Shown: positions 5,494-29,122, counted from the first letter of the stretch. The stretch: 32,000 bases of DNA from Haloquadratum walsbyi C23 (GCF_000237865.1 NC_017457.1:1-32000), one strand, 5' to 3'. The notes: generated by a model from the sequence alone, not told the origin. Numbers and translations: made by a program.

Positions 5494-5914
5494 GGTGTAA
5501 CGATTGTTTTCTTATAATAGTCTAGTATCAAGAGTATGAGCAGGAGGCTCAATTCACACGTGAGTACTCCCGTACAGATCATTGGAGGTAGCTGTGTAAG
5601 TGCAATCATCGTGATAGAACGGCACGATATTGCACTCACACGATTACTGCGTGTTAAATTTTTCAATCACTCACTTTTGCTCAGCTTGATTCATTCCATC
5701 GTCATCAGAGTTGTTTTGACCAACAAATCTGTGTGCAGAAATTTTATTTAGTTCATTGAGCCGTTCAACAAGACGTCTTGCCGTTTCTCAATACTGGGCA
5801 AACAATTACCTGATCCCCTTATCGGGTTATGAATGACATAATGAGTTCTCTATCACCGTTGATATAGGTTTTATTGGAATTATGCGTATCAGGATCACGT
5901 CTAAAGTAGGATAT

Positions 5915-5949
5915 CTTATGTAATATATTGATTCCATATTTTACATAAG
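5915..5949. promoter_or_regulatory. Palindromic element copy 4: CTTATGTAA-N17-TTACATAAG
   Basis: Perfect 9-bp half-sites read directly. It lies in the roughly 1-kb non-coding stretch 5482-6554. Confidence 0.5.
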
Positions 5950-6554
5950 GGACGAAATTATCACAACCATTAATTATCAATAATATTATACCAGCGTTTC
6001 TGTGCAAGCTGTCGATGCTTATTCCTACTCAATATCACGAGTTGTGATTGCGTCGAGTTCCTCCGCCGTTGAGTTCACTCTTACTTACATAGTCAAAAAA
6101 ATGCTGTAATATGTGTTGAATATACTGATATCAGCAGATCTATAATCACTTTCGTGTTTCATGCTCAGAAAGTCGATTCTATGGCTGGAGAACAATTTGT
6201 AAAGTATGATTCAGTTGCTGATTTTTTGAGGGATATACCATTATGATTGATAATGAACGGTATTCAGCCGATGTAGACACGGATCTGCCTCCACTGAAGA
6301 CCTCTTAGATTAGCACATTTCACCACACTGGGAAACTAGAATTGCCCCAATCGTAATCGTGACAGGGTCTACTCAGAGGAGACTCTATATGAGATGTATG
6401 CACGTTCATTCCATCAGTGCGGTCTGAACCAACACAGATTGCGTATTCATTCATAATGATCATAGTAATAATATTTATCTTGTTTATGATGGTAACTGCA
6501 ACTGTATCGAGAGATTTTATGATACTACAAAAATACACCCATGAGTAACTGAAT

Positions 6555-10104: not shown

Positions 10105-10151
10105 CTATATTCCAAAGTGGTTAGGATCTGTCTTTACACGTATAATATAAT

Positions 10152-10556
10152 TTATTCTTCAAACTTCATTCCGTATCCCCACTCCTCAAGTTGTGCCTCC
10201 ACTTCGTTGAGATGATTGAGTCCGACTAATGCTATTGCCTCTCGAAGATCTGTCAGCGATACGTCTCCGTCAAAGCGATCTTCGAGTTCTCGTTGTGCAT
10301 CACGCTCGTTTCCCTTCGTCTCCTCCTGCAGGAATAACGGAACACGATTCCGACCGTCCTGAACACTATCACGCCGAAACTTGTATGGAATTCGCATTTT
10401 CTGACGCTCTTGTTTCATATGTTCGGTTACGTCAGATTGATCCTCAGTTTTATCTGGCGTCTGCTGATTACGCTCTGTACTTGACTCCGTTTCATCCAGC
10501 TCATCTGTGTCATCCGAAAACGGGTTTTCGCCGGCACCTTCTTTCATACCCGTCAT
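10152..10556 (-). CDS. Acidic ParA-associated protein (putative partition adaptor or centromere-binding partner)
   Basis: Its start overlaps the parA stop by 4 nt, implying translational coupling. 134 aa and very acidic. A decayed homolog lies at about 16385-16600. The function is inferred from position only. Confidence 0.65.
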   Translation of the reverse strand: MTGMKEGAGENPFSDDTDELDETESSTERNQQTPDKTEDQSDVTEHMKQERQKMRIPYKFRRDSVQDGRNRVPLFLQEETKGNERDAQRELEDRFDGDVSLTDLREAIALVGLNHLNEVEAQLEEWGYGMKFEE

Positions 10557-11428
10557 GCTGAGATCACCTCATGTTCGACATCCCCTGGCTCTGGTGGATT
10601 CGGTGCTTCAATATCAATTGCATCCTCTAAGTGCCGAGCAATCCGGTCGAACTGTGCTAGCGTTTCGATTTCGTAATCTCGTCGCTGTGTACGGTGTTCT
10701 CGGACGTATTGGAAGGCAGAACACTGTTGCATCCAGCAGCCTTCCATTAATGAGGCTCTTTCACCAATCACTTCAGGAATATCATAGGTAATCTCTGTGA
10801 GAATCTGCTTCTGATCACGCGTATTCTTGAATCTGATTGGGATTGCTGCGAGGACACCAACTTCGATATCCAACTGTGACTCGAACCCAGCAACGAGCGA
10901 TTCCAGTCCTTCAACTGCAGCTCGTCCTTTTGCACTCGGTTCGACAGGAATCACGAGTGAACGAGTCGCATTGATTGCATTATAGAGATGTGGTCCTTCC
11001 GTTGCAGGCGGGTCACAGATCAAGACATCATACTGATCTGGTACCCCTGCTTTGCGAAGGACGCGTAAAAGCTGGGAATGCATCCCGAATGCTTCACCCA
11101 TTGCTTCCGCTTGCTCTTTCTCACGCTGAAGATACTCCGCAAGGTCGGAGAGCATGTTATGCTCTGGAATGATGTCAACCCCCTCAACCGTTCGAATCAG
11201 ATTGCCAAACTCGCCTTTTGAACGACGGATCATGTGGCGAACCACGTTGTCGACTGACTCTGTTCGGTCAGTATCAACACCAAACAGCCGTGATAGATCT
11301 CCGTCCTGTGGATCAAGTGGGACGACGAGCGGTTTTAATCCGGCACGAGCATGTGCAACAGCTAGATTTGCCGCCGTTGTGGTCTTTCCTACCCCACCTG
11401 CCTCGCTGTATGTCGAGTATGCCAACAT
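10553..11428 (-). CDS. parA: ParA/Soj-family partition ATPase
   Basis: Deviant Walker A SEAGGVGKTTTAANLA immediately follows MLAYSTY. Also present are the Walker A' VVPLDPQGD and Walker B DVLICDPPA. I placed the start at ATG 11428, because the extra 28 codons of the track ORF (to 11512) run into the iteron array. Confidence 0.9.
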   Translation of the reverse strand: MLAYSTYSEAGGVGKTTTAANLAVAHARAGLKPLVVPLDPQDGDLSRLFGVDTDRTESVDNVVRHMIRRSKGEFGNLIRTVEGVDIIPEHNMLSDLAEYLQREKEQAEAMGEAFGMHSQLLRVLRKAGVPDQYDVLICDPPATEGPHLYNAINATRSLVIPVEPSAKGRAAVEGLESLVAGFESQLDIEVGVLAAIPIRFKNTRDQKQILTEITYDIPEVIGERASLMEGCWMQQCSAFQYVREHRTQRRDYEIETLAQFDRIARHLEDAIDIEAPNPPEPGDVEHEVISA

Positions 11429-11477
11429 ACGTGAGTAATATATGACCACTGTATTGAAACTTCGCCAGACGATTTCA

Positions 11478-11590
11478 TGAATACACTTCATGAATGTATG
11501 TGGTGAACACAACTAGTGAACATATGCAATGAATACACATCATGAACATGCTGAACAAATGTAGTGAACACAACTAATGAACAACGTAGC
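11478..11590. repeat. Array of nine TGAAYA-initiated iterons with 13-bp periodicity (candidate partition centromere or operator)
   Basis: TGAA starts at 11478, 11491, 11504, 11517, 11530, 11543, 11552, 11565 and 11578. Spacing is 13 bp except for one 9-bp unit. The unit TGAACACAACTA occurs twice (11504, 11565). The array lies about 50 bp upstream of parA. Confidence 0.7.
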
Positions 11591-12543
11591 ATATCAGACA
11601 GATTTGGTAGTAAACCAACATGAGGTAACTTACACGCTCCGTCCTACAGTTAGATCATCGACGGCTAATTGCAACTCCCGATCATACGTGTTTCCACCTC
11701 TAACGGGGCAGTATGTTTCTCCTCAACGTATTTGAGATTAGTCATACATACTCCAAATAATAAATCCTGGCTTAGATTTGCTATATTCCGTTCTGGGTCG
11801 CACTCTGATCACTGCAGGGCAGCTGCCGACGTGACGACTTTATTTGAAATTAAATTGATACCCCTCTTCAAGTCTGCAAATAATCACGATGGTGAATTTG
11901 AGAAATATTGGCAATCCTTCGTGATAAAAAATCGATTATTTCACTGGTTTCGATCAGAGATCACGGTATCTCTCCGAGAATCATCGCCTCACCTGTATAT
12001 GTCATGTCTTCAATAAATACTTATATTGGTTTTTTGAATCATCTTATATCAATTCTACTATACTTCTCAGCGTCGATGGCACTAGCACGGGCCCGATTAC
12101 TGCATAGATGCGCATGACAAGCCAATCGACTCAAAACAACTCCGATAGCCGAAACACCACTAGCAGTAATATAATTGCAGACTGCAGAGAACCGATTGCC
12201 CGTAAAATAGCGGGTCCGTTAGTGAGAGTCTTTTCGATACCATCCATTAAAATATCATAATCTGACTCTATTCAAAAATCGTTCGTCAGCGCTGATCTAC
12301 TGAAACATAATTTACTTGACTCCGATACCAAGGAGAAGGTCAGCTTAGTGACGGCGGTCTGCATAGTCATTACATATGCAGTCCGTATGGCATCTCAGTT
12401 CTGATGCTTTTGATATCTAAAACTACGAGGAAAGCTGACCCGAATATGATTTCATTTGCATGAAATGCGATGTTTAGCATTCATTCAAATAACCACTAGA
12501 TATTAACATGAAGGCAGTATAATTGACTATCAGATAATTGAGC

Positions 12544-15500
12544 ATGTCATTAAAAACCAGAATATCTGAGATGAGTGACACTGGTAAATTCGAAAATCTC
12601 GCAACTGAAGTCCTACGGAGGAGCGATCAAAAATATGAGGCTGTTATTCAGACCGGTATCAATACAGAGGGTAAGCCAATTAATGATCCTGTAGATGGGC
12701 TAGGGCAGGTTCTCGACGCGGATCCACCACATTATATATTTTTAGAATTTACTACAACTCAAAAATCAAACTTAGAGAAAAAATGGCTTGCTAATCCAGA
12801 CGCAGGAGATAATGATCCTAGGGGAGATTTGATTAAAGCTGCTGATAAATCAGATAAGATTCGTGAAAATATTCCCAATGCAGAGTTTACAGCAGTTTTA
12901 GTCTCAAACCGTGTATTAAATAGTGAACTGATGCAAGATGTTTATCATACTGTTAATCGTCGTGACATTTCTGTTGATATCTGGGACGTCCACCGTATTA
13001 GCGAATTTCTCCAGAATGATCCGGATGGACAATATATCTGTGAAGAATATTTTGATATCGATGAAAAACGGCTCTCTGAGCCGCTTCTGCTAGAACTATC
13101 AGAGGATAGTCTCAATTCATATAAACAGAGTTTTCATACCTCTGTCGGCGGTGTAAAGATAGAGCGTCCGGAACTATCAGAAATACTTTATAATGCCCGT
13201 AGCTCCGGTGTTGGAAGCCACTTCGTCCCCATAGTTGGCAATTCTGGATTCGGAAAAAGCGTTATTTCCTATCAGGCGCTGAAACGCTGGAGAGCAAATC
13301 AAAAGCCAGCACTGAGGCTTGATTCAGAAGATATTAAACATTCAAAATCTTTAGCTCAGGCAATTAAATCGGGACTTACGCGTTTAAACTCGAGTCTAGA
13401 GCATACACCAGGTCAAAAGGCACTACAACTCGCCGAGGAAAATTCACAGCTTTTGATTGTAGTCGATGATCTCAACCGTGCAAATAATCCGTCTCGTCTG
13501 CTGGCAAAACTACAAAACTGGATGGAGGGATTGAATAACACCACAGATGAATCCAAGAATGGGCATAAATCCGGTTCAGGTAGATTGCCAATTACCATTC
13601 TATGCCCATTTTGGCCCCGAATTTGGAGCAAACAAAAGCGTAAGATGACTGGAAATGAGTTCGCTGAGCCCATCGAACTTGAGGCGCTTTCCGCTGAGAA
13701 CGCAGGTGAGCTTATACAGCTACACGCAAACGAGCATGGACACGATTTTTCGGATGAGGAAGCTCGTAATCTTGCAGAGGAAGTGGGTCGAGATCCACAT
13801 TTGATCGGTTTACTCGGTCAACTTATGTGCAGTAAAGAAACTATTGATAATCTACCAGACACTTCGAAAGAGGTTCTTAGTGAGTATTCTGAATACGCTT
13901 TTGAGATGGCGAGTGAAAATTTAAATGAATCATTAATCGTTGGAGACTATGAGCGAGCTGTTGAAGAGTTGTCCCATAATATAATGAAGGCTAAAAATTT
14001 AAACCCGGAATGGAGAGATATACAAGATTGGTCATGGTCTAGCCAACGAATTTTAGATGGGATTCGAAACTTATCTGAGCAAGAGCAACTGTTTGCAATT
14101 CTGAAACAAAGAGAAGAGAGAGTCCTGTCCTTTCGTCATGACCGAATTCGTGACTTTCTGCTCGCTGACGCCGGCATCGAACAAATGGACCGAGATAGTA
14201 CCACGCATACCTACCTAAACGACCCGTATTATTACTCAATTCTTGGGACTGCAATCGCATATTTCCGACCATCTGAGACTATCCTTTCACAACTGCGGAA
14301 AAGCAACCCTCTTTCGCTCATCGAAGCGATCAGTAGGCTCAATGGAGATTTTCCAGAATATGAGCAGAAGGTAGCCGCAGAGTTTCAACGGTGGCTAGAT
14401 GACCAGGGAGGACACACAGAGATTCTTAATAGTATACTTGATGAAACAATGGATATTCTTTATCAAACAGACTCAGAACAAGTTCTTGAACTAGCTGAGT
14501 CATTACCACAGTTTCCGATAGTTCTGCTGGCAAGGTTCAGGAATGGTGACTTGAAGGCAGGAATACAATATTGTAAAAGTAACTATGGGTCACCGAATGT
14601 AAATAACTCCCGGCGAGATTCTGTATTCGACGATGTGATGCATCAAGGGGGCTATGCATATATAGACAAACTTTCCGAGATTCTCTCGTCAGTAGATGCT
14701 GAGCATGTTGAAGCAACACTTCGTCTCGCTGGTTTTGTTGCTCAAACTGAGTTAGAGCAAGGTATCAGGGAATGTTGGAAGCGTCACGGAGAAAATCCGG
14801 AGTTTCTGTCGGGATTTCTATGGGCGAGCTTCCAGTGTTGCATCCCCGAACATAGCAGCCTCGTCGATCAGGTAATCACTCGATGGAAGTCACTACCGAG
14901 TGGGAGTGATATTGGTGACGAAAACGTCGAAATCGCCACTGGTGATGTTTATAGAGAAGTAAAACACTCTCTCAGGCGGGATATATCTGAAGACCAAGTA
15001 GAATATCTGATTAAAACAGTAGAGGAATCCTCGGATATGGAACGCTATCTCGTGTCTATTCTGAGTGAGGTTCCCGACTCGAAAGCACTGGAACTCGTGG
15101 TAAAGGAGCGAGGTGAAAATATGAGGAAAACAGATGGAATATCCCCGTGGGCAACGACACTCCTAGATCCTTGGAGTCCTAGAAACCTAGGTGGTCAGGC
15201 TCTTCCTGCTAAGATAAAAAGACGAATGAAAGAGATCTGGACGGATAACAACAATGCCGACCGAACTCGAACTAGTGCGTTTCAATTGTGGGCCAAAAAT
15301 ACAGCAGAGGGTGACATCGAGGAATTGAAACGTGCGAGTGAGAATAATTTATTCGAATACCGAGCATATTATGAACGGCTGAGGTTAGCTGATAAAACGG
15401 TTATAGACTCTTCATCAGTTAATTTCGTTGAAAAATCCAGTCTAATTAATGTTTTATCGAACGCTTGGGGGGCAGAAGCCCATAGGTTGGTTGATGACCT

Positions 15501-16245
15501 TCTTAATCAATATTTCCCAGACGATCCAGAGAGTTTATCTTATGACTTAGGTAATCTTTTGTTCGATATCCCACGAGAAAGTGCAGAGAAAATCTTAGAT
15601 CGGCATTGGGAGAAGGTCAACACCAATTCTGAATTTTTCCAAGCAGCACTGTACATTGGAACATCCCAAACCAGAAAACTGGCTGAGGAAGCGTATGGAG
15701 ACAGTGATGATCCAGGAAATCTGCTGAATCATATTGGTACAAACTTTGGGTTTAAAACTACCGGGCGATCTCAGCTGATTTCGAAACGGCAGCTTGTTTC
15801 TATCGAACCGTATCTGTGTGATATCTCTGACGTAGATTTGGTGTCAATTACGAAGAAGGCTTACGAATTAGATATGGAAGATTGGGTCACTGACCACGTG
15901 TATCCACATTTGACAGATAACCAACGACAAAGGTACTTTCCTGATGATAGTGATCTTTTAGAAGAGCTAAGTGAGATTGAAACCACAGAGAACAAAGATG
16001 TTATTGGCTGGATGATGAGATTCGATGACCGTTTCATATCAAAATCCCGTATTTGGCGAGTACTGGAGGGGTGGTTACAAAATGATCCGACGGTCGATAG
16101 GTATAGAATGTCCGTTCAGATAATCAAGAACTATGGGACACGAGAGAATCTCGACATATTGAACGATGTTTTGCTTGATTCTGACATAGCACAGCAGTTG
16201 CACAAGGATGCGGAATTCAGAGTAAAGGTTCGATCCCTAGATTGA
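12544..16245 (+). CDS. Large Mrr-like nuclease + P-loop NTPase + helical-repeat protein (Avs/STAND-like architecture)
   Basis: The N-terminus FENLATEVLRR...YEAVIQTG...DPVDGLG...YIFLEFTTTQK resembles the Mrr restriction-endonuclease catalytic domain. Walker A is VGNSGFGKS (13237-13260) and Walker B is LLIVVDDL (13450-13473). About 800 aa of helical, repeat-like C-terminus follow. I used ATG 12544; TTG 12538 is the alternative. Confidence 0.8.
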   Translation: MSLKTRISEMSDTGKFENLATEVLRRSDQKYEAVIQTGINTEGKPINDPVDGLGQVLDADPPHYIFLEFTTTQKSNLEKKWLANPDAGDNDPRGDLIKAADKSDKIRENIPNAEFTAVLVSNRVLNSELMQDVYHTVNRRDISVDIWDVHRISEFLQNDPDGQYICEEYFDIDEKRLSEPLLLELSEDSLNSYKQSFHTSVGGVKIERPELSEILYNARSSGVGSHFVPIVGNSGFGKSVISYQALKRWRANQKPALRLDSEDIKHSKSLAQAIKSGLTRLNSSLEHTPGQKALQLAEENSQLLIVVDDLNRANNPSRLLAKLQNWMEGLNNTTDESKNGHKSGSGRLPITILCPFWPRIWSKQKRKMTGNEFAEPIELEALSAENAGELIQLHANEHGHDFSDEEARNLAEEVGRDPHLIGLLGQLMCSKETIDNLPDTSKEVLSEYSEYAFEMASENLNESLIVGDYERAVEELSHNIMKAKNLNPEWRDIQDWSWSSQRILDGIRNLSEQEQLFAILKQREERVLSFRHDRIRDFLLADAGIEQMDRDSTTHTYLNDPYYYSILGTAIAYFRPSETILSQLRKSNPLSLIEAISRLNGDFPEYEQKVAAEFQRWLDDQGGHTEILNSILDETMDILYQTDSEQVLELAESLPQFPIVLLARFRNGDLKAGIQYCKSNYGSPNVNNSRRDSVFDDVMHQGGYAYIDKLSEILSSVDAEHVEATLRLAGFVAQTELEQGIRECWKRHGENPEFLSGFLWASFQCCIPEHSSLVDQVITRWKSLPSGSDIGDENVEIATGDVYREVKHSLRRDISEDQVEYLIKTVEESSDMERYLVSILSEVPDSKALELVVKERGENMRKTDGISPWATTLLDPWSPRNLGGQALPAKIKRRMKEIWTDNNNADRTRTSAFQLWAKNTAEGDIEELKRASENNLFEYRAYYERLRLADKTVIDSSSVNFVEKSSLINVLSNAWGAEAHRLVDDLLNQYFPDDPESLSYDLGNLLFDIPRESAEKILDRHWEKVNTNSEFFQAALYIGTSQTRKLAEEAYGDSDDPGNLLNHIGTNFGFKTTGRSQLISKRQLVSIEPYLCDISDVDLVSITKKAYELDMEDWVTDHVYPHLTDNQRQRYFPDDSDLLEELSEIETTENKDVIGWMMRFDDRFISKSRIWRVLEGWLQNDPTVDRYRMSVQIIKNYGTRENLDILNDVLLDSDIAQQLHKDAEFRVKVRSLD

Positions 16246-16384
16246 CTTTTTTATGTTTTGACAGTGTAAATGTCATGATTACACTCGAATATCAAAAGTG
16301 CCTTGCGCACACGAGGTGCTGATGCGTTGTTCCAAGACTTTCTTAAATATCGTAATTACAGTAGCATAATAAAAGATAATTTAT

Positions 16385-16600
16385 CTCTCAAATGTCACTC
16401 AATGTTCCACATTCTTCAAACTGCGTTTCCACTTTCTCAGGATGATTGAGTCCAACCAGTACAACTGCCTTCTCATACGAGGTATCTGAACAATGTCCTT
16501 TTTACGCTCGTGAGGAGAACATCAACGACTTCGACTCTTGGATGAAATATGAGCTTGAGCGTAAGCTTAGTGAGCGAGGTTATCAGAACATCGTCGCTCG
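16385..16600 (-). pseudogene. Decayed homolog of the ParA-associated gene (10152-10556)
   Basis: The minus-strand translation GHCSDTSYEKAVVLVGLNHPEKVETQFEECGTLSDI* aligns with DVSLTDLREAIALVGLNHLNEVEAQLEEWGYGMKFEE*. Upstream, YFIQESKS aligns with LFLQEETKG. At least two in-frame stops interrupt it. Confidence 0.55.
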
Positions 16601-16973: not shown

Positions 16974-18110
16974 ATGATACCCGGCAAATCCACGGCTCCA
17001 AATGATGAAACCAATCTGGACGTCGCAGTCGATTCACGGATTGCTAGCCTTGATTCTGGTAACTATCGGGCGAACAACCGGGTAGTTCTCAAGACATTTT
17101 CAGAGTATCTGGACGATTATCAAGATACCACAGACCTCACAGAGCTGAGCATCATCGATTGTCGACGGTACGCTCAGCATCTACGGAAGAGAGTCCGTGA
17201 CGAAGATGATAACCTCTCAGCGGCTTCAGCCCATACAAATGGTCCATATTTCACCATCGTTCGAGCATTTCTCGGATGGTGCGTCGATGACGAACGGATC
17301 GAATCGAACCCTGCTCAACCGAATCGGGTGAAGGAAGAGCTTCCAGAATACCATGGCGATCACGACCGACAGTTTTGGTCAGTCAAGACACGAGAAGCAC
17401 TACTTGAATTTGTTGAGGATCGAACTCATGCTGCTCTGGAGGAATCAGGTGATGATAATGTCGAACGTGTATTTCGAGATCGGGCTGTCGTCACAGTGCT
17501 TGCTCTGACTGGAGCTCGAGGTGCCGAACTATTCTCGGATCCACGTGATGAACACCGGAACGGTCTCAGATGGAAAGATGTCAATCTCACGCAGGGTGTC
17601 ACCACTGTGTTCGGAAAGAATCGTAAGCGACAACAAATCCCTTTGACCAGCCGAGTCGTCGGCGCTCTTGAACAGTATAAATCGGTGCTGAATCCAGCAA
17701 GTGGAGACTGGCCACTATTCCCGACAGGTCACCACGCATCACTCACAGACGCTGCCAAGGAAGGTCTTGAATCGAAGGGGTGGAATTCTGAGGAAATTAA
17801 GACAGTGCTTGAAGAGTCGTTATCGATTGAAATACTCCACGAGTACGAAATCGCACCACCAGCACTTTCAAAAAATGGGGGGCGGTCCGTAATGAAACGA
17901 CTCTGTGAGGCAGCTGACATTGATATCGACGGAGAGTATCTCAAACCTCACGGTGGTCGACGAGGGCTCGGCAGCGATCTCTATGCTCAAGATGCAGAAC
18001 TCGCACAGGAACTTCTCCGGCATGAATCAATTGAAACAACCCACGAATCATATCGAGAGCAGAACGTCATTGAGCAGCGAGAACGTCTAGAACAGGCACT
18101 TGGTAAGTAA
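16974..18110 (+). CDS. Tyrosine recombinase / integrase (XerC/D-like, phage-integrase family)
   Basis: Box I is VLALTGARGAELF. Also present are KPHGGRRGLGSDLY (H-x-x-R), LLRHESIETT (second His) and HESY (nucleophile Tyr). The N-terminal SAM-like core-binding region includes CRRYAQHLRK. Confidence 0.9.
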   Translation: MIPGKSTAPNDETNLDVAVDSRIASLDSGNYRANNRVVLKTFSEYLDDYQDTTDLTELSIIDCRRYAQHLRKRVRDEDDNLSAASAHTNGPYFTIVRAFLGWCVDDERIESNPAQPNRVKEELPEYHGDHDRQFWSVKTREALLEFVEDRTHAALEESGDDNVERVFRDRAVVTVLALTGARGAELFSDPRDEHRNGLRWKDVNLTQGVTTVFGKNRKRQQIPLTSRVVGALEQYKSVLNPASGDWPLFPTGHHASLTDAAKEGLESKGWNSEEIKTVLEESLSIEILHEYEIAPPALSKNGGRSVMKRLCEAADIDIDGEYLKPHGGRRGLGSDLYAQDAELAQELLRHESIETTHESYREQNVIEQRERLEQALGK

Positions 18111-18270: not shown

Positions 18271-18314
18271 CCTTATGTAACAAATAATTTTCTCTATCCA
18301 ATTGTTACATAAGG
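18271..18314. promoter_or_regulatory. Palindromic element copy 2: CCTTATGTAACAA-N18-TTGTTACATAAGG
   Basis: Perfect 13-bp inverted repeat. An AT-rich TATA-like core (AATAATTTT) sits between the half-sites, and an ATG (18317) lies 2 nt after the right half-site. Confidence 0.55.
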
Positions 18315-18928
18315 TTATGAAAATCATATACTTAAGTTTTATCACACTAAAATTCACGCTTAGCCAGCACACATGTACATTAATGGCAGAACGGGACGAG
18401 CAGACTATAACAAAAATATACCAGCTTAATGTGCTCGTTAATTTATATCTCGACCACCGTTTAATAGGGAAAGATCAGTACCTATGAGCTGCTGGAGCTG
18501 ATATTATAGCACGGATATTCTATGCCTAATAGATGACAAATGACGAATTATTAGACAAATATGATTTATCAGTTTACCTTTGGTCGGTATATTACCTCAG
18601 TATAGTCAGCCGAATAATAGTATAATGATAGTACGGGTGTTATATTATTTTGTTAAATTAATCATAAATTTGATATTTTATGTGAATCGGGAGCTGTAAA
18701 ATCAGTCTCTTTTGATAATTTAGATATATCTATACTTTTATTATATCATTTATTTTTGAATCTACAGCGCCTACGGATAAATTATATTATTCATCGATGT
18801 ATGTGATTATAATTATCCACGCAGCGAAATAAGCCATGTCCGACGATTAACTATATTGATATTGTCACTTTTTATTGATGAATTCTATGTAAGCTGGATA
18901 TCGATTCTATACTTACTCCCTACGATAT

Positions 18929-18973
18929 CTTATGTAAAATATAAGTAGTATTACTGTAACTTTGTTACATAAG
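18929..18973. promoter_or_regulatory. Palindromic element copy 3: CTTATGTAA-N27-TTACATAAG (right arm TTGTTACATAAGG)
   Basis: It has the same geometry as copy 2. The ATG of the downstream gene (18977) lies 2 nt after ...CATAAGG, and an AT-rich stretch separates the half-sites. Confidence 0.55.
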
Positions 18974-18976
18974 GCG

Positions 18977-19330
18977 ATGAAGCAACCAGAAACACCCAAT
19001 TCATTACCAAAGTATCTTGCAGAGGGTATACCAAAGCAAGATGATCAGACGCTTGAGGAGCTACAGGAGTATCTAAATGAGCTAATTGAGTACAGAAATA
19101 GAGCCGTATCAGAAGACGAGATATCAAGTAATGCCAAACCAGTAGACGAAAGTCAATATGCAGGCAGAGGCACAGTAGTCACGGAGAAGGTGAAATGTGG
19201 TGATTCGTCATGTAAGTGCACGAAAGGTGGTGAAAAGCATGGACCATACGTCTACAGATACTTCCGCAGGAACGGTAGTGTTGTATCTGAATATCTTGGC
19301 AAGCCAAGTAAGCTAAATATCAATATCTGA
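18977..19330 (+). CDS. Small protein with a CxxxxCxC...HGPYxYxY motif (DUF6788-like, putative Zn-binding)
   Basis: The motif is KCGDSSCKCTKGGEKHGPYVYRYFRRNGSVVSEYLGK. I recall this Cys cluster plus HGPY signature from small proteins linked to integrases and mobile elements. I placed the start at ATG 18977, because the track's TTG 18962 lies inside the palindrome. Confidence 0.6.
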   Translation: MKQPETPNSLPKYLAEGIPKQDDQTLEELQEYLNELIEYRNRAVSEDEISSNAKPVDESQYAGRGTVVTEKVKCGDSSCKCTKGGEKHGPYVYRYFRRNGSVVSEYLGKPSKLNINI

Positions 19331-19694: not shown

Positions 19695-21359
19695 ATGACC
19701 TCCTCCGACTCAGACAATCCGACTGATGAGGCTGATATTAAACCAGGTGCTGATCTCTCCGGTATGAACTTCACGGATACTGACCTCTCCGGTGTAGATC
19801 TGTACAATTCTGACCTCTCCGACGCTCGTCTTCTCAACGCAGATCTTTCCGGTGCTAACCTCACCAACGCTAATCTCGCTGGTGCTGACCTTTCGGCTGC
19901 GTCATTGAGCGAAGCTACACTCTCCGGCGCTAATATTTCTGACGCCAACCTCACTGGAACAGACCTCTCTAGTGCTGATCTTACAGACACTGACTTGTCC
20001 AGTGCTTACCTTCTTGACGCAGATTTGACGGGTGCCTCTCTCTCTGGTGCATGTGTGACAGATGCCCAGTTGGCAGACGCTCAGTTTGAGTACACAATTC
20101 CACATGATGAGGATGTCTCACCTCGTGATATCATCCCACAAGCTGTTCTCTCCGGCGCTGACCTCTCCACAGCTGATCTTTCCGGTGCCGACCTTTCCAA
20201 TTCTGCCCTCACACATGCTGATCTCTCCAACGCCAGTCTCCGCAATGCAAGTCTCAGGGACGCCGATCTCTCTGACACTAATCTCAGTGGAGCTAGTCTT
20301 AGAGATGTTGATTTCTCTGGTGCTGACCTCTCAGGTGTTGATTTGACACTCGCTTCAGCTATCGATGCCGACTTCTCAGGTGCCGATCTAACCAACGCTG
20401 ATCTCTCCAACGCCGACCTGTTTGACCCACGACTCACCGACGTTTCAGGCGCCGACCTCACAAACACTGATCTTCGCATGGCTAATCTCTCTAATACTAG
20501 TCTTATTCAGGCGGATCTTTCTGATTCCGACCTTTCTAGTACTGATCTTACTGACGCTGATCTCCGTGATGCCAATCTCGCAGGTGCTAATCTCACTGAC
20601 GCTGACCTCTCTAGCGGATCCAGACCTCTTACAAAAACTGATCTTTCCGGTGCCGACCTCACCGGTGCTACCCTCACGCAAGCCAATCTTACCGGTGCCT
20701 CTGTTTCTGATGCAGATATAACAGACGCTCAGTTGACAGACGCCCGATTTGAATACACAATTCCACAGGATGAAGCCATCTTGCCTCACAATATTATCCC
20801 ACAAACTATTCTATCCGGCGGTAATCTCTCTGACGCATATCTCAGGGAAGCTGACCTTGCTGACGCTCGCCTTTCAAACGCATCTCTTCAGGGCGCAGAT
20901 CTCATACGTGCTAACCTTTCCGGAGCAAATCTCTCGAGTGCCGACCTCTCCAACGCTAATCTCAACCAAGCTGACTTCTCCGGCAGTAGTCTCACGGACG
21001 CTGATTTCACACACACCGATCTCATAGATGCTGATCTCTCTGAGGCTAACCTCTCTAGGGCAAATCTCTCGAATGCTGACCTCAATCGAACAAATCTCTC
21101 AGATGTTGATCTCTCTGATGCCTCCCTGAAAAAAGCCGATTTGTCTCAAACCAACCTCTCCGGTGCGAACCTCACAGATGCTGACCTCCCTGGGACAAAT
21201 CTCTCGAATGCTGATCTCTCGGGAGCTTCCCTGAACAAAACTGATCTGTCTGACATTGATTTCACAAATACTACAGTTTGGATTTCTTCTGGCGGCAAGA
21301 AATGTATTGCATCGAAACAATTGCTAGCTGAAAAAGGGGCGATTGTTGATATGAAATAA
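19695..21359 (+). CDS. Pentapeptide-repeat protein (A[DN]LxX repeats, three blocks)
   Basis: Nearly the whole 554 aa follows a 5-residue periodicity (ADLSG, ANLTN, TDLSS and so on). It is interrupted twice by a conserved linker, DAQL(A/T)DA(Q/R)FEYTIP(H/Q)DE...IIPQ..LSG. No signal peptide is present. Confidence 0.95.
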   Translation: MTSSDSDNPTDEADIKPGADLSGMNFTDTDLSGVDLYNSDLSDARLLNADLSGANLTNANLAGADLSAASLSEATLSGANISDANLTGTDLSSADLTDTDLSSAYLLDADLTGASLSGACVTDAQLADAQFEYTIPHDEDVSPRDIIPQAVLSGADLSTADLSGADLSNSALTHADLSNASLRNASLRDADLSDTNLSGASLRDVDFSGADLSGVDLTLASAIDADFSGADLTNADLSNADLFDPRLTDVSGADLTNTDLRMANLSNTSLIQADLSDSDLSSTDLTDADLRDANLAGANLTDADLSSGSRPLTKTDLSGADLTGATLTQANLTGASVSDADITDAQLTDARFEYTIPQDEAILPHNIIPQTILSGGNLSDAYLREADLADARLSNASLQGADLIRANLSGANLSSADLSNANLNQADFSGSSLTDADFTHTDLIDADLSEANLSRANLSNADLNRTNLSDVDLSDASLKKADLSQTNLSGANLTDADLPGTNLSNADLSGASLNKTDLSDIDFTNTTVWISSGGKKCIASKQLLAEKGAIVDMK

Positions 21360-21576: not shown

Positions 21577-22149
21577 ATGGAGATAGAATATATATACCAC
21601 TCAGCATATGTTGAAGATATTCCGAGCATCAAACAAGGAGGACTGCGACCATCTAACCAGACATACCGGGATGATATTGAGACGAAACTACAGGTAGTGG
21701 CTTATAAAAATGAAATTTGCCTCCCAATAAATCGTCAAGATTGTGTCTTCTGTTATCCCTCGCTTCGACATGGAGTTAATATGGGATCATTCGCAACTAA
21801 GGATGCAGGTTCGCTTCGTTTACAACTCTTGCATGAAGGACTGGTCGTGATTGATGCAAAACCATTTCAAGAAAAACTGTACGTGGGAGATTTTGATCTC
21901 TTTTCTGATATTATTGAATTCTCAATCGTAGGATCGGACGATTATGAGAGGGCATTAATGATATACGCTGAATCCCTTACCCCAGTCGCCGAATTCAGCT
22001 CTATTCAGGAAATCGATGCCGAATTCAGTATCCCTGAGATATTAGTTGAGGGGAAGATTGGAGCCGACCAAGTTGTTGAGGTAATACTTCGCAAGGAGAT
22101 ACTGGGAAGTGGGTATTTCACATCATACTCAGCATTACCATCTGAGTAA
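21577..22149 (+). CDS. DarT-like (DUF4433-like) ADP-ribosyltransferase-fold protein
   Basis: Three segments match my recollection of DarT. IYHSAYVEDIPSIKQGGL matches IYHITHIDNL..IL..G.L, DCVFCYPS matches DYVPFYFCPRS, and PEILVEGKIGADQVVEVIL matches the catalytic QAEFLV...I..I motif. The size (190 aa) also fits. Assigned from memory, not from a search. Confidence 0.6.
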   Translation: MEIEYIYHSAYVEDIPSIKQGGLRPSNQTYRDDIETKLQVVAYKNEICLPINRQDCVFCYPSLRHGVNMGSFATKDAGSLRLQLLHEGLVVIDAKPFQEKLYVGDFDLFSDIIEFSIVGSDDYERALMIYAESLTPVAEFSSIQEIDAEFSIPEILVEGKIGADQVVEVILRKEILGSGYFTSYSALPSE

Positions 22150-22153
22150 GTCA
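22012..22153 (+). repeat. Direct repeat copy A (native 3' end of the DarT-like gene)
   Basis: It aligns with 28915-29052 at roughly four-fifths nucleotide identity by eye. Its last roughly 75 bp also align with 30818-30892. Confidence 0.8.
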
Positions 22154-22421
22154 CATACTGGATCATAATCTCGACGAATATGGCTATTGATTGCTCAGAG
22201 ATGATATTCTGGAGCGATATGAGTGTGTGGTCTAGTAATAAATCGACTCGGATTCTGACCATGTGAGTTATAAACAATGAGAAAGCCATTAGTATAGATT
22301 GACCGTGTACAGATGATCAAGTCTCTGAATCTATCTATTCCCGGTCACGCCACACAAACTGCCCTGGAACTATGTCATACCGGGAAAGGAATATACCCCT
22401 GTGCTGAGTCAATTAATAAAT

Positions 22422-24140
22422 ATGAGTGGGAGGACGCCGACTATCGATACGAAATGGAATGATCTAACAACAGTGCATGAAAAACGTCGAGAGACAATTC
22501 AAGACCAGATTAAAGATTTTGACGACCCTGGTCAACGGGTGCCAGCAACATATGTAATCGGAGCAATTGGAGCAGGAAAAACCCAGCTTATGATGCATGC
22601 CTTTCGATATGCTTGGGCGTACCAAAACAAACCAGCTCTGTACGTGACCTTGGGAAAATTGATTGACGATCTCGAAGATCAAGTCGGTATTTCCAATTCA
22701 GAGGAGCAGCTAACTTCCCAAGTGTATTTATATAATTGGATAGAGGACAGATGTAAAGACGAGTTAGATACTATTAGAGCTAAAATAGATCGAAATGAGA
22801 AATTTGATCAAAATCAGTATCTTCCAAACGCACGTTCTTCTAATCCGCAGGAGTATTTTGAGCAAATAGAGGGAAATTATGATGCTGACAGTTTCGATTA
22901 TGACGAACTGACCATTGAACATGAAGATATCTCAGACATCGCTCATAAGAAGGATTCAATCGTTCTATTGATCGACGAAATGGAGGAAAGCTATCCTCGT
23001 CTGGAGGGTCTCATTGATCAAACAACAGGACCACTGAGGGAGGTCGTCACTGGTATAGGGAATCAAGAACCACCGTTCTACTTAATTGGGGCTTTTGGAT
23101 ATGCGAGTGTACAAGAAATTGGTCATGCAGAATTTCGTCGAGTAACTCCTGTTTCCCTTCCGATTTTACACCCTGATGATCGAATTAGTGAACTGTTTGG
23201 TGAGAATTTGGAGTATCAACAAGAAAATTTCGCTTGGTGGATGTCAAGGGGTCGACCAGGGTGGATTAATATTGCTTTGCAAAGCCAAGCCAGTGCTCTA
23301 AATGGTGGAATCAATAAGACTGATGACCAGCTACGAGAGATACCAGACGCTATGTCACGTGTTAATATGATCGATCTAGAGTCCATGGACCGGAGATTAA
23401 ATAAATTTACCAACGAAATCAGAGATTTCATTAGCTATCTTCTCCTGCAACCGGGTCCCCATCATATAGGTGATTTTACTGAGACTGAGAAGGTCCGCCA
23501 ATATATGAAGTCTGAGGCTCCGCCAGTGTTGTGTGCACCCAAAACAAGTGGAGTTGATAAGATCCACTCAGCATTCCTCGCTGGTATAAAGAACACATCA
23601 ATTTACACTAGTTCTGTTTCCTCGGATATCCTTCGACGGTATGCAAGGAGAGTGTTGAGAGGAATAGCAAATTCTGCAGGGGAAATTGTGGCGGGAAACG
23701 CAAATGTTCCCACGTACCGCAAGGGTCAGAGAACACATGAATTAATACTTTCCCCACTTTGTGAACGCATGCATGATATCGCCCTAGAGGAGGTTAATGA
23801 AGAAAGTGAATCAGAAACAATAGATTTTTTATATAAATTAGCTCAGATGACCCGTTCAACTCCCACGGAGGATATATCTCAAGACTTTGCAGATATGTTT
23901 AACCAATTTACAAAATACGGACATAACAGTGTAGACCAGGAAATGTATGTTTCAATCGCACCTAAAACATTAATTACTGCTTTTCCTAGTTTTGTAACCA
24001 ATCCACAGCTGGATTTCGCTGGGTCCGCTCGTAATAGAAAAGAACAGCTCACTGGACTAGTCGATAAAGTAAATCGAATTGATGAGATCGACGAACGTCT
24101 CAAAGACTTTGGAAAAATTCTACAGGAAGATCCGAGATGA
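22422..24140 (+). CDS. P-loop ATPase, first gene of the four-gene operon
   Basis: Walker A is VIGAIGAGKTQL (about 22560-22586) and Walker B is SIVLLIDEMEE (about 22958-22990). The track ORF starts at GTG 22401. I prefer ATG 22422 because an AATATA TATA-like box lies about 30 bp upstream of it. No known family recognised beyond the P-loop. Confidence 0.85.
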   Translation: MSGRTPTIDTKWNDLTTVHEKRRETIQDQIKDFDDPGQRVPATYVIGAIGAGKTQLMMHAFRYAWAYQNKPALYVTLGKLIDDLEDQVGISNSEEQLTSQVYLYNWIEDRCKDELDTIRAKIDRNEKFDQNQYLPNARSSNPQEYFEQIEGNYDADSFDYDELTIEHEDISDIAHKKDSIVLLIDEMEESYPRLEGLIDQTTGPLREVVTGIGNQEPPFYLIGAFGYASVQEIGHAEFRRVTPVSLPILHPDDRISELFGENLEYQQENFAWWMSRGRPGWINIALQSQASALNGGINKTDDQLREIPDAMSRVNMIDLESMDRRLNKFTNEIRDFISYLLLQPGPHHIGDFTETEKVRQYMKSEAPPVLCAPKTSGVDKIHSAFLAGIKNTSIYTSSVSSDILRRYARRVLRGIANSAGEIVAGNANVPTYRKGQRTHELILSPLCERMHDIALEEVNEESESETIDFLYKLAQMTRSTPTEDISQDFADMFNQFTKYGHNSVDQEMYVSIAPKTLITAFPSFVTNPQLDFAGSARNRKEQLTGLVDKVNRIDEIDERLKDFGKILQEDPR

Positions 24141-25825
24141 AGACCAGCGTTTACCCTATCCCATGTGGTGAAGGAAGCATAGAGGAAGTAGTAGACCCTT
24201 TTTTAGAAGCAGAAATCAATCAACGGGCGTTTTCAAAAGATGATCTGTTCATGATTCTATTACTTAATCCAAGCACATCGGAGTATGAAGGAACTAATAA
24301 AAATGCTGATTATAAAGATATCGTCACAACTCATATAAAAAGTAAGGAGTCTCGGATTCGAATAGCATATGAACTTGATAAGCTGACCGTTGCGCTCTTA
24401 GATGAGCGCCGGCTCAGTAACTTCGCAATAAGTTTGCTCTACAACGTTCTCGAACAAAATCCGGTTGCTGACCCGACCAGTGTCATGACTGATGAGCAGA
24501 ATCTGACAGATGAAGATATTCGAAAAGTCGATTATTATTTGCCAAAAATAAATGATCAAGTTCAAGATCTTATTACGGAGCAACAGCAGGAGTTTGAAAA
24601 TCAAATGTCCTCGCTGTTACCAGTCTCACCGAATAATAAAATAGCTTCTAATTTATATCGTCGGCTGAGCGATAATATACAGAGCGATGGAGCTATTATC
24701 GACTATCTCATTCTTACCGCAGCAGCTGACGAAGATCGAGAGGGGGTCCAGTCTCTACTAGGGTCGATACGGAACATAGATCTTGAAAAGAAGCTACTTT
24801 CAGGAGATTATACCTCTAATATTAGTGGATACCAACGTATAATACAAAATTCATACAATAAAAAACAATCAGAGTTCTTTGATGACTTTGAGACTGGTAT
24901 AGATTTATATCGTGATAGCACTACGAGTGCCGAGCTTCTACGAATTTTGCGGGAGCTTGATTCTGATATCTCGATAAACTCCGAGCAGAACCAAAGTAGA
25001 TCAGCATACCAATATGAACCAACTTTGACACAATTACTAACAGCACAGATAGATGGAAATAATCAGATTATTAAATGGATTCTACAAGCAGTCAATATTA
25101 TTCGTCTTATTCAAGATAATGAAAGATCTGTATTAGACTCTTATCAAACTCAACATACTGAACTGGAAAGTACATTAGATGAGATTGATGAGAATTTTAA
25201 TAGGATTGATGAATTACAGGAAAATTATCCGAAGGGTAAAATCTCATATGATGATACCACAATCGATCATGCTCGAGAAATGATCCGTGAGGTGAAACAG
25301 AGTAACTCTTTATTAATCAAGTTTATATTTGGATATGATATGGATTTCCGGACGAGTGCCTACACCACTGCTCAAACTCGATTGAGAGATACAAAGTCGA
25401 GAATAGATAACGGGATAGGCAAACTCCGGAACCAAACGATAGAAATAAACAAATTGCAAACGAGCCTCGAGAATGAGTTAGATACAATTGACCAATCATA
25501 TGAGGATATCGAAAGAACATCTGTGGTAGTTGACATTCCTGAGCGAGATGATATAAAGAGGGTATTTCAGGATGAATGGTTGAGTGAAATTGAATCGCTC
25601 AAGCGAGAGCTACCAATGCTTGACTTTGGGTCACAGAGCGAAGATATACGACGGACTCAGCAAGAGGACTGGCAACAGGTGATTGCTGAGACTCGGAACG
25701 AGTTACAATCGTTGAGAGCATTCGCTGATGACCTGTCTAAATTTAGTGACCAAATTAACCAAATCGAGAATATTAGGGATAACACTAGACAAGAATTTCA
25801 GCAAATCCATGATAAAATTCAATAA
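24137..25825 (+). CDS. Large coiled-coil protein of unknown family, second gene of the operon
   Basis: The start overlaps the upstream stop (ATGA). The 562 aa are rich in E, Q, D, N and L with long heptad-like stretches, especially in the C-terminal roughly 250 aa. No enzymatic motif found. Confidence 0.85.
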   Translation: MKTSVYPIPCGEGSIEEVVDPFLEAEINQRAFSKDDLFMILLLNPSTSEYEGTNKNADYKDIVTTHIKSKESRIRIAYELDKLTVALLDERRLSNFAISLLYNVLEQNPVADPTSVMTDEQNLTDEDIRKVDYYLPKINDQVQDLITEQQQEFENQMSSLLPVSPNNKIASNLYRRLSDNIQSDGAIIDYLILTAAADEDREGVQSLLGSIRNIDLEKKLLSGDYTSNISGYQRIIQNSYNKKQSEFFDDFETGIDLYRDSTTSAELLRILRELDSDISINSEQNQSRSAYQYEPTLTQLLTAQIDGNNQIIKWILQAVNIIRLIQDNERSVLDSYQTQHTELESTLDEIDENFNRIDELQENYPKGKISYDDTTIDHAREMIREVKQSNSLLIKFIFGYDMDFRTSAYTTAQTRLRDTKSRIDNGIGKLRNQTIEINKLQTSLENELDTIDQSYEDIERTSVVVDIPERDDIKRVFQDEWLSEIESLKRELPMLDFGSQSEDIRRTQQEDWQQVIAETRNELQSLRAFADDLSKFSDQINQIENIRDNTRQEFQQIHDKIQ

Positions 25826-25828
25826 GAT

Positions 25829-28207: not shown

Positions 28208-28208
28208 C

Positions 28209-28619
28209 ATGGTTGAATACAACCACGATATGCTCGTCCGAAAACTGGATGAGAAATTGAGAGACAAATTTGAGACTGCAGAATTAATCGCCCGAAAGGG
28301 TGGATCTGAATTTAAATTAGGTAGATTACGAATTGAGCGACGACATTTCTCTGGTGAGTCTGGTGCTCCCGATTTCGTTCTTTTTGCGGATTCTCTCCAG
28401 CTTCTTAATAAACAATTTGCGGGTTCAGTGCCACTGGCTCTTCTGGAAATAGAAAAAACAATTGGAGATTCTATGCATGATCTTCGCAGTTATGCAGATT
28501 CAGATCGTGAGCAGTTACCGGTGCTGCTCATCACAGAATCGGAAATGGGTGATCGTATTAAGACGATCCCGGGAAAAAGCACATTTAGAATATTGACCAA
28601 AAATTATGATGAAATATGA
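28209..28619 (+). CDS. Small PD-(D/E)xK-like protein (putative nuclease), fourth gene of the operon
   Basis: It starts 1 nt after the upstream stop. APDFVLFAD (about 28364-28385) and, about 25 residues later, LALLEIEKT (about 28441-28461) resemble a restriction-endonuclease-fold core. The E-I-E-K spacing is not the canonical ExK. Confidence 0.7.
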   Translation: MVEYNHDMLVRKLDEKLRDKFETAELIARKGGSEFKLGRLRIERRHFSGESGAPDFVLFADSLQLLNKQFAGSVPLALLEIEKTIGDSMHDLRSYADSDREQLPVLLITESEMGDRIKTIPGKSTFRILTKNYDEI

Positions 28620-28803: not shown

Positions 28804-29052
28804 CAGATAAAAAAGATCAATATCGATACCGAAGGAGAGCACATTGCCATTGATGATGATACAGGAGATGAGTCGATCAATCTTGACGCTGACAGCAAAG
28901 AGAGGCTCATTACAATCGATGCTGAATGCCGAAGCCCTGAGATATTACTCGAGGGAAAGATTGGAGCCGACCAGATTGTTGAGGTAACATTCCGTAAGGA
29001 GATACTCGGAAGTGGGTACTTTGCATCATACCCGGCACTGCCTTCTGAATAA
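28804..29052 (+). pseudogene. Start-less gene fragment carrying direct-repeat copy B (3' end homologous to the DarT-like gene)
   Basis: My own translation ends ...RLITIDAECRSPEILLEGKIGADQIVEVTFRKEILGSGYFASYPALPSE*. This frame has no ATG, GTG or TTG after the stop at 28801. A short ATG ORF (28772) in another frame abuts it. Confidence 0.6.
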
Positions 29053-29122
29053 ATCATCACTTGGAGGGGTCCGTAAAGTCAGAAGGATAGAATACCCCAC
29101 CCCCCGTGTGCGATATGAAATT
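28915..29122 (+). repeat. Direct repeat copy B (coding part plus about 70 bp of shared downstream sequence)
   Basis: 28915-29052 aligns with copy A. 28975-29122 aligns with copy C, including the post-stop stretch TCATCACTTGGAG.GGTCCG...CCCACCCCCCGTGTGCGATATGAAATT. Confidence 0.8.

Follow-up and report, generated by a model that had tools for sequence, protein, structure and literature searches.

The stretch analyzed here, referred to as the window, comprises 32,000 nucleotides from Haloquadratum walsbyi C23 (GCF_000237865.1, NC_017457.1:1-32000). It contains a stand-alone gene for a large protein, which combines an N-terminal effector-like domain with a STAND-type NTPase and a long helical tail. 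This gene is most likely a new, uncharacterized member of the known Avs/NLR-like class. An earlier reading of the same DNA (the original prediction) had proposed an Mrr-like nuclease, fused to a P-loop NTPase and a helical-repeat region, and had considered the protein a candidate Avs/NLR-like antiviral sensor. The tripartite STAND architecture and the genomic context agree with such a candidate, but none of the named Avs or AVAST models from PADLOC matches it. All features are collected in Table 1.

The Gene and Its Start Codon

The gene is a single long open reading frame (ORF), which may start with a TTG (12538) or with an ATG (12544). The ATG is supported by a database protein that has 1233 residues and 100% identity, and by the N-termini of 25 full-length homologs. 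In total, a word-index search for relatives returned the identical protein and 28 further homologs. The G+C content is about 42% in this region. A chance ORF is far excluded because of the length of 3.7 kb in DNA of this composition and because hundreds of full-length homologs exist. Asp and Glu account for 17% of the protein, an acidic composition that is as expected for a halophile. The ORF is thus real and intact, and the five sequence motifs on which the original prediction was built were all located: FENLATEVL (residues 16-24), DPVDGLG (48-54), YIFLEFTTTQK (64-74), GNSGFGKS (232-239) and LLIVVDDL (303-310).

The TATA-like element GTATAATT is a possible archaeal promoter, judged from its sequence, and the transcript would then be leaderless. 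A spacing of about 24 nt between TATA box and ATG is typical for leaderless genes of haloarchaea.

Upstream, 1031 nt (11513-12543) separate the gene from a divergent ParA-like gene. No conserved ORF, no Rfam match and no similarity to related loci were found in this region. The idea of a decayed gene there was rejected, as tblastx and blastn comparisons with related loci and the Rfam search were all empty. The gene is thus solitary and follows a noncoding stretch of about 1 kb, as had been stated.

Table 1. Features of the gene under study, of its product and of the remainder of the window.
Feature	Position (nt)	Strand	Details and basis
STAND gene, stand-alone NLR/Avs-like	12544-16245	+	complete, 1233 residues plus stop codon; ORF call, identical database protein, homologs
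TATA-like element GTATAATT	12517-12524	+	about 24 nt before the ATG of the STAND gene; read from the sequence
N-terminal effector-like domain, restriction-endonuclease-like fold (probable)	12544-13068	+	residues 1-175; AlphaFold2, Foldseek, column statistics
P-loop nucleotide-binding domain	13156-13698	+	residues 205-385 (approximate); AlphaFold2 strands and helices, weak Pfam matches, Foldseek
Walker A motif GNSGFGKS	13237-13260	+	residues 232-239; G235, G237 and K238 invariant in 40 diverse members
Walker B motif LLIVVDD	13450-13470	+	residues 303-309; D309 invariant, D308 nearly so; family pattern hhhh[DE]D[IV]NR
Helical domain with GxDP(h)LIGL motif, and winged helix	13696-14178	+	motif at residues 415-423; AlphaFold2 helices and beta-hairpin, motif conservation
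MHD-like motif FRHDRIRD	14131-14154	+	residues 530-537, closes the winged helix; H532 invariant
C-terminal all-alpha solenoid	14179-16242	+	residues 546-1233 (about 690 residues); AlphaFold2 all-helical, pLDDT mostly 85-95
134-residue acidic ParA partner gene	10152-10556		looks intact
ParA-like gene	10553-11512	-	AAA_31, 2.5e-19; looks intact
Tyrosine integrase	16974-18110		0.7 kb downstream of the STAND gene; Phage_integrase, 1.1e-13
DUF6788 gene	18962-19330		precedes the pentapeptide-repeat gene
Pentapeptide-repeat protein	19695-21359	+	554 residues, nearly all in pentapeptide repeats; Pfam Pentapeptide, 1.6e-122; coding DNA registers as a 20-copy direct repeat
Tightly packed four-gene cluster	22401-28619	+	579, 562, 792 and 136 residues
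Orc1/Cdc6 homolog	30988-31875	-	match from the middle of AAA+ onward (lid and winged helix); N-terminal P-loop part missing

Domain Architecture and the STAND NTPase

Confident AlphaFold2 models were obtained with 24-25 haloarchaeal and distant homologs for residues 1-195 (pLDDT 82.4, pTM 0.76) and for residues 176-1233 (pLDDT 84.4, pTM 0.75). Four parts can be distinguished: an alpha/beta N-terminal domain of about 175 residues, a P-loop core, helical and winged-helix modules extending to about residue 545, and a helical tail. The domain order given by the original prediction (nuclease-fold head, NTPase, helical region) fits this anatomy. The helical region is present and all-alpha, but at about 690 residues it is shorter than the approximately 800 residues that had been attributed to it.

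The assignment of the NTPase to the STAND class is solid, because structural neighbors, recurrent weak Pfam matches and invariant motifs all point to it. When residues 176-1233 were compared with PDB by Foldseek, as had been advised for the NTPase and repeat region, solved STAND/NLR proteins were returned. Avs4 (8dgf, E 1.7e-7) is the top match, NLRC4 is next (2.9e-7), and SAMD9, Apaf-1, NLRP2/3/9, NOD2, CED-4 and plant NLRs are among the further ones; the solved STAND proteins from Avs4 through CED-4 span E-values of 1.7e-7 to 1e-4. With Pfam, the best match of the window protein is nSTAND1 (22.6 bits, gathering cutoff 27.1), and NB-ARC (18.8 bits, cutoff 23.5), AAA_16 and NACHT are also found below threshold. 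Weak matches of this type recur across the 40 family members scanned (AAA_16 in 22, NACHT in 9, nSTAND5 in 7 and NB-ARC in 5), for which the batch scans give E-values only. No housekeeping family outside the STAND class was indicated for the NTPase.

The same 40 members have only about 25% identity to the query. Nevertheless, four motifs are invariant or nearly so, with the family consensus GxSGxGKS (Walker A), hhhh[DE]D (Walker B), GxDPhLIGL and FRHDRhR[DE]xLL. In the latter two, the conserved residues are G415-x-D417-P418 and F530-R-H532-D-R534. We take these two motifs to be the counterparts of GLPL and MHD in NB-ARC proteins. With both Walker motifs, helical and winged-helix domains that carry a conserved histidine, and structural likeness to solved STAND proteins, it is close to certain that the protein contains a STAND switch.

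The N-Terminal Domain

The model of the N-terminal domain has the topology alpha-beta-beta-beta-alpha-beta-alpha-beta. Its top match in PDB is Avs4 (8dgf_B, E 8.3e-3, probability 0.97, 168 columns). The other matches among the top 15 which cover most of the domain are nearly all PD-(D/E)xK proteins (MUS81-EME1, EcoT38I, Can2, MspJI, XisH, Shedu, BstEII). In the viral library BFVD, the domain matches N-terminal domains of Rpb5, endonuclease I, a Vsr-type endonuclease, a restriction endonuclease and a Holliday-junction resolvase. A restriction-endonuclease-like fold is thus probable, as far as the model allows this to be judged. At the level of sequence, the domain is matched by no Pfam family in the 40 members scanned, and its profile retrieves none of the PDB sequences.

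Column statistics were obtained from 173 diverse sequences. Seven residues are invariant in the family (E17, N40, D51, K80, D95, K98, R166). The conserved positions are E17 in helix 1, G38 and N40, P49-x-D51-G52 where strand 2 begins, T70 where strand 3 ends, K80-W81, G94-D95-x-x-K98 where helix 2 begins, N122 and R166. Six charged residues of the window protein are candidates for a metal-binding and catalytic site by their sequence (E17, D51, E68, K80, D95, K98), and all of them except E68 are invariant. The N-terminal domain is the most conserved region of the protein, with a mean pairwise identity of 41%, compared to 24-28% elsewhere. An enzymatic effector is favored because of this conservation and because of the invariant acidic and basic residues. 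Proteins consisting of this domain alone were also sought, but the short matches to the domain profile are mostly contig fragments or ambiguous.

The Helical Tail

The tail is presumed to be the sensor. Its Foldseek matches are HEAT-type solenoids (CAND1, transportin, CRM1), and HEAT_2 is weakly matched in 2 of the 40 members by Pfam. Invariant in the tail are an ARFRNGD motif (R666, N667) and a large number of Trp residues.

The motif is part of a longer conserved segment, LLARFRNGD(L)xAG (residues 660-675, nt ~14521-14568), in which R666 and N667 are invariant in bacteria and archaea alike. Judged by this conservation, it may mark a binding site for a ligand or a partner. It also caused a match of residues 602-677 to a ribosome hibernation factor, which is regarded as spurious, as it weakened from 8e-4 to 0.048 with a broader profile.

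Distribution of the Family

An exhaustive search with a profile of the N-terminal domain, carried out on representatives at the 50% cluster level, returned at least 649 representatives that contain this domain, 397 of them below 1e-30. Most have 1200-1250 residues, with the domain at the N-terminus. The 29 relatives from the word-index search are full length and essentially all haloarchaeal, whereas most members from the profile search have a nonhalophilic composition. Archaeal members are found in Haloferax volcanii, Halorussus, Halalkalicoccus (two copies, both on the same plasmid) and a metagenome-assembled genome from the Methanosarcinales. Proteobacterial members come from Methylophaga, Nitrincola, Gilvimarinus, Bradyrhizobium, Burkholderiales, Polymorphobacter, Sphingomonas and Acinetobacter, and other bacterial members from Opitutales, Obscuribacterales, Pseudanabaena and Aliarcobacter. 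The gene is carried by plasmids in 7 records; none of the phage genomes scanned carries a member. The original prediction had stressed that characterized archaeal examples are scarce. Haloarchaeal members do exist, but the family is very large and mostly bacterial, so that the archaeal angle is weaker than had been implied.

In the source databases, the members are named "hypothetical protein", "ATP-binding protein" and, once, "NACHT domain-containing protein". The PADLOC 2.0 models for Avs1-5/AVAST I-V, bNACHT01/09 and PD-lambda-4 have no match with E ≤ 0.01 in the 40 members. The NCBIfam model DS8_antiphage is weakly matched in 6 of them (best 8e-4), which probably reflects P-loop similarity only.

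Genomic Context of the Relatives

The context of the relatives was analyzed for 100 neighboring ORFs from nine independent genome loci by PADLOC and Pfam scans. PADLOC detected GajA/GajB (Gabija, down to 4e-255), type I methyltransferases, type IIG enzymes and mad2. Pfam added KwaB (Kiwa), AbiEii, D12 and N6 methylases, UvrD, integrases and patatin; the patatin gene overlaps the start of the Bradyrhizobium homolog.

Further contexts come from contigs that were already annotated, two of which have a similar arrangement. In Haloferax volcanii L014 (JAWLKZ010000029.1, 1-8224), the STAND gene is located just downstream of a cluster that codes for DUF499, DUF7680, a DUF1156 methylase and an SNF2 helicase; the helicase has a faint PLD match, and this locus also has an integrase. 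In another haloarchaeal locus (L020, 1-8649), it is located just downstream of a similar DUF7680/DUF1156/SNF2 cluster, the first gene of which is cut by the contig end. This co-location in L014 and L020 is absent from the window. The clusters suggest a MADS-like system, because PADLOC found mad2 matches near other loci of the family.

Other loci are diverse. One contains hsdM/S/R; another has integrases on both sides of the family member, together with Nmad2/Nmad3; in a third, a CHAT/TPR protein and a DNA methylase occur along with ParB and an integrase. The Halorussus locus has a D12 methylase, a ParE-like gene, PadR and ParA. On a plasmid of Acinetobacter sp. NCu2D-2 (NZ_CP015595.1, 7980-12148; L023), the gene and a Phd/YefM-RelE/ParE pair lie between uca and atzF, which looks like accessory cargo inserted into an operon for urea carboxylase and allophanate hydrolase. 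On the Halalkalicoccus plasmid, the gene is found beside genes for a type IV secretion system coupling protein and a phage repressor.

No neighbor is conserved, and the sizes of the flanking genes vary in every locus. Candidates for conserved partner genes were rejected: the 87-residue ORF downstream in the window, ORFs of 86 and 71 residues downstream and genes of 207 and 210 residues upstream (in L015 and L018) are mutually unrelated. This pattern is the one of an accessory function that consists of a single gene, moves horizontally and travels with defense systems. It agrees with the claim that this is a stand-alone gene in DNA of mobile or defense type: the synteny is variable, defense and mobile genes are nearby, and conserved synteny with housekeeping genes was not found.

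Proposed Function and Alternatives

We propose that the protein is a single-protein innate immune sensor of the NLR/Avs type, carried on mobile DNA, which would abort infection by means of clustered N-terminal domains. As a whole, this reading is somewhat favored. A role in defense is likely, while for the nuclease chemistry of the N-terminal domain, argued by analogy, the scales are evenly balanced, and direct sensing of a viral protein, also argued by analogy, falls slightly short of an even chance. The mechanism follows Avs3, Avs4 and other solved STAND proteins by analogy (see also PMC13581612). At rest, the protein would be an ADP-bound, autoinhibited monomer. A cue of the infection, most probably a viral protein that is conserved, would be bound by the C-terminal solenoid. 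Nucleotide exchange or binding at the P-loop would then let the NOD modules (for nucleotide binding and oligomerization) oligomerize, by which the N-terminal domains would be brought together into an active assembly. This assembly would degrade DNA or otherwise damage the cell, and the infection would be aborted.

The original prediction had named three observations that would speak against it: an NTPase from a housekeeping family, an N-terminus without a nuclease fold and synteny with housekeeping genes. None of these was made. However, a series of points weighs against the proposed role. PADLOC, which had been recommended as a check, returned 0 matches with E ≤ 1 for the window protein, so that no defense-system model identifies it. 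Above threshold, it is recognized by no Pfam, NCBIfam or PADLOC model, and no curated STAND profile from Pfam exceeds its gathering score. When PDB sequences were searched with three profiles, only P-loop noise was obtained and no solved STAND protein beyond the P-loop. The defense context of the relatives was scored qualitatively, without a genomic background, and their neighbors also include housekeeping genes (nitrogenase-like, 6PGD, P450). In the window, the immediate neighbors (HisK, a membrane protein and ParA) are not defense genes. No paper on this STAND family and no experimental data on any member were found in the literature searched.

The remaining points concern the chemistry of the N-terminal domain. 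All of its Foldseek matches are weak, none reaching E ≤ 1e-3, and the aligned part of Avs4 is not shown in the output. The site of the beta-3 acid (position 68) is variable, with His in 66, Glu in 42, Gln in 41 and Ala in 18 of the 173 sequences. The window protein has Glu at this site, and its beta-3 reads E68-F-T70. Where the lysine of a canonical (D/E)xK motif would be expected (position 70), 154 of the 173 sequences have Thr. A working nuclease site would need K80 or K98 from the neighboring helices, because T70 replaces the catalytic lysine; this is read from the alignment.

These deviations are the basis of an alternative which is rather unlikely overall but survives best. The protein would be the same STAND defense switch, but its N-terminal domain would not be a DNA nuclease. 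Instead, as a diverged module with the restriction-endonuclease fold, it would, for example, act on RNA or nucleotides, bind or clamp DNA, or serve as an oligomerization platform which recruits or poisons a host factor. Besides the Thr at position 70 and the variable beta-3 acid, this is supported by the lack of a match to any nuclease family of Pfam in the 40 members and by the hhalign comparison with E. coli Mrr (probability 0.25%). In addition, the weak Foldseek matches include noncatalytic domains with this fold, such as the N-terminal domain of Rpb5. On the other side, the domain is better conserved than the rest of the protein, its invariant E17, D51, D95, K80 and K98 form a pattern typical of metal-dependent phosphodiesterases, and the nuclease-bearing Avs4 is the top structural neighbor. 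Moreover, active-site residues of PD-(D/E)xK enzymes can reportedly migrate to neighboring helices, and the 2012 superfamily survey by Steczkiewicz et al. is said to describe such cases.

Whichever chemistry applies, the label "Mrr-like" has to be abandoned. Of the catalytic D...(E/Q)xK motif of Mrr_cat, only the aspartate is invariant (D51), while position 68 is His, Glu, Gln or Ala and position 70 is Thr; Pfam Mrr_cat is not matched in the 40 members, and the hhalign probability given above points in the same direction. The impression of an Mrr-type domain arose because the spacing in the N-terminal domain is near that of Mrr (D-x15-Q-x-K). Of the proposed N-terminal nuclease module, the restriction-endonuclease-like fold is thus retained as probable (from AlphaFold2 and from Foldseek with PDB and BFVD, at weak E-values), but the Mrr type is not. 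Similarly, the highlighted Glu (E68, in LEFTT) is present in the window protein but is not conserved in the family, so that the cutting of DNA is predicted rather than observed.

An improbable alternative addresses the trigger rather than the effector. The protein would be a guard-type or nucleic-acid-sensing STAND protein whose tail does not directly bind a viral structural protein but responds to a host factor or to an infection-induced state, or it would serve in competition among plasmids and mobile elements rather than against viruses. The records on plasmids, with none among the phage genomes, fit this alternative, as do the par genes, the coupling protein of the type IV secretion system and the integrases in the window and in several homolog loci. 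The solenoid, too, resembles HEAT-type protein-binding scaffolds and no known Avs sensor. There is also a precedent in bNACHT25, a bacterial NLR-like protein that, as cited in PMC13581612, senses through the host chaperone DnaJ. However, conserved phage proteins are recognized by direct binding in most of the characterized Avs families (PMC13581612). Conservation of the sensor from Halobacteria to Proteobacteria also fits a target common to tailed viruses of both domains better than a lineage-specific host factor. Very improbable is a nonimmune regulatory or signaling STAND ATPase (MalT/AfsR-like or a housekeeping scaffold) that occurs in variable DNA by chance: the lack of a match to defense models, some metabolic neighbor genes and the interspersion of defense and nondefense clades in the STAND superfamily tree (PMC13581612) are compatible with it, but neither a helix-turn-helix nor another output domain of the kind usual in STAND regulators was detected by Pfam in the window protein or the 40 members, there is no synteny with any pathway, and the distribution is patchy, often on plasmids or near integrases, with known defense systems adjoining many loci.

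For the reading as an immune sensor, a more specific version may be put forward tentatively. This would be an unnamed Avs-type family with a fixed architecture of 1230 residues. Its effector would represent a noncanonical clade of the restriction-endonuclease fold (Thr in place of Lys; invariant E17/N40/D51/K80/D95/K98), and its HEAT-like sensor would recognize a fold common to tailed viruses of bacteria and archaea. If true, the native copies carried by Haloferax volcanii, Halorussus and Halalkalicoccus would make this the first genetically testable archaeal pattern-recognition STAND protein. In prokaryotes, antiviral STAND proteins correspond to the NLRs of animals and plants, and with each family characterized, another viral protein recognized by cells has come to light. 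The present family is large, unannotated in all databases checked, and found in both prokaryotic domains with unchanged architecture. Its trigger and its effector chemistry, once identified, would add a new receptor-effector pair. As genetically tractable haloarchaea carry the family, they offer a route to testing NLR-like pattern recognition in Archaea; the literature searched contained no characterized system of this kind from Archaea and no characterized STAND defense system from haloarchaea.

Other Features of the Window

(a) The original prediction had placed the gene in a segment bounded by partition-gene remnants and an integrase. The integrase is real, but the parA gene looks intact. 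The sole remnant-like piece is found just downstream of the STAND gene at 16370-16470, where about 100 nt have 69% identity with the parA partner gene at its 3' end (10141-10240; E 4e-4; tblastx 52% over 31 residues). Judged from this similarity, it is probably the remnant of a second copy of the partner gene, which hints at an assembly of the segment by recombination.

(b) Iteron-like direct repeats with two copies each of GTGAACACAACTA(G/A)TGAACA and ATGAATACAC(T/A)TCATGAA occur at 11477-11594. They are located just upstream of the ParA-like gene, which is on the minus strand. By their sequence and position, they are a candidate centromere or operator of the partition module.

(c) An intergenic palindromic element, CCTTATGTAA-N(25-40)-TTACATAAGG, is present at ~587-631, ~5907-5950, ~18271-18314 and ~18921-18974. 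The 10-mer of the palindrome occurs 6 times, with 0.06 occurrences expected. Two copies share a significant direct repeat of 22 nt (5907, 18921), which brackets a segment of 13 kb with HisK, the par genes, the STAND gene and the integrase. These two sites were rejected as an att pair, since the repeat is not unique and belongs to the palindromic element that is found at four places in the window. The element could be an operator, a terminator, similar to a miniature inverted-repeat transposable element, or a set of recombination sites.

(d) The first gene of the four-gene cluster has a weak P-loop match of the nSTAND5 type. Otherwise, no Pfam, PADLOC or PDB sequence match was found for the cluster. 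It is surrounded by direct repeats of 143-151 nt with 83-89% identity (22011-22153, 28914-29122, 30754-30962). The cluster may be a second defense-like cassette which was inserted by duplication or recombination.

(e) The Orc1/Cdc6 gene is probably truncated or frameshifted. This gene, the ParA-like gene and the integrase together suggest that the DNA is derived from a plasmid or a provirus. A megablast search of plasmids and phages gave no match to the window.

Comparison with Known Systems

(a) Nucleases of the Mrr type (PF04471) and other PD-(D/E)xK enzymes share the alpha-beta-beta-beta-alpha-beta core with the model of the N-terminal domain, and its weak fold neighbors are mainly such nucleases. 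In the window protein, "PxDG" is located at the start of beta-2 and the acid follows 17 residues later in beta-3, while E. coli Mrr has D-x15-Q-x-K. In contrast to Mrr, the window protein has Thr for the catalytic Lys, a beta-3 acid that is not conserved in the family, and invariant K80, D95 and K98 on the following helices.

(b) NLRs of the AP-ATPase/NB-ARC type (Apaf-1, CED-4, plant NLRs) and of the NACHT type (NLRC4, NLRPs) share the fold consisting of the nucleotide-binding domain, helical domain 1 and the winged-helix domain. The Walker B, GLPL and MHD motifs of NB-ARC proteins resemble "hhhhDD", GxDP(h)L and FRHDRxRD in the window protein, the latter two presumably being equivalent. The effector and the sensor differ, the gene is prokaryotic and stands alone, and the Pfam scores are below gathering.

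(c) Avs4 (AVAST type 4; EcAvs4-portal complex, 8dgf) is the best structural neighbor of both halves of the window protein. Common to both are an N-terminal effector with restriction-endonuclease fold (probable for the window protein), a STAND NTPase, a long sensor made of alpha-helices, the organization as a single gene and the occurrence in defense islands. However, the window protein is about 300 residues shorter, and its N-terminal domain is devoid of the Mrr-type QxK lysine. There is no relationship at the sequence level, as profile searches of PDB sequences miss 8dgf. The global superposition is poor (TM ~0.2), so that a likeness of the sensor to that of Avs4 is not established.

(d) A recent survey delineated 589 prokaryotic STAND clades, 198 of which are defense-associated, and named Avs1-24 (Lee et al. 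2026, Nature, PMC13581612). Its class definition asks for an effector and a sensor of at least 400 residues, mostly TPR-like helical repeats, which are joined to a STAND NTPase and located near defense genes. The comparison was made at the level of this class definition. At this level, a tripartite single polypeptide with a sensor of at least 400 residues is found (AlphaFold2; 649 representatives), as is a qualitative association with defense islands and mobile DNA (Gabija, restriction-modification, mad2, Kiwa, AbiE, toxin-antitoxin pairs, integrases, plasmid genes). A family of this size was probably captured in the PSI-BLAST expansion of that survey, but its effector criterion would miss the family if the effector is likewise without a CDD profile match. 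The family is mildly unusual in that its architecture is fixed in both prokaryotic domains and its effector domain lies outside every profile library queried.

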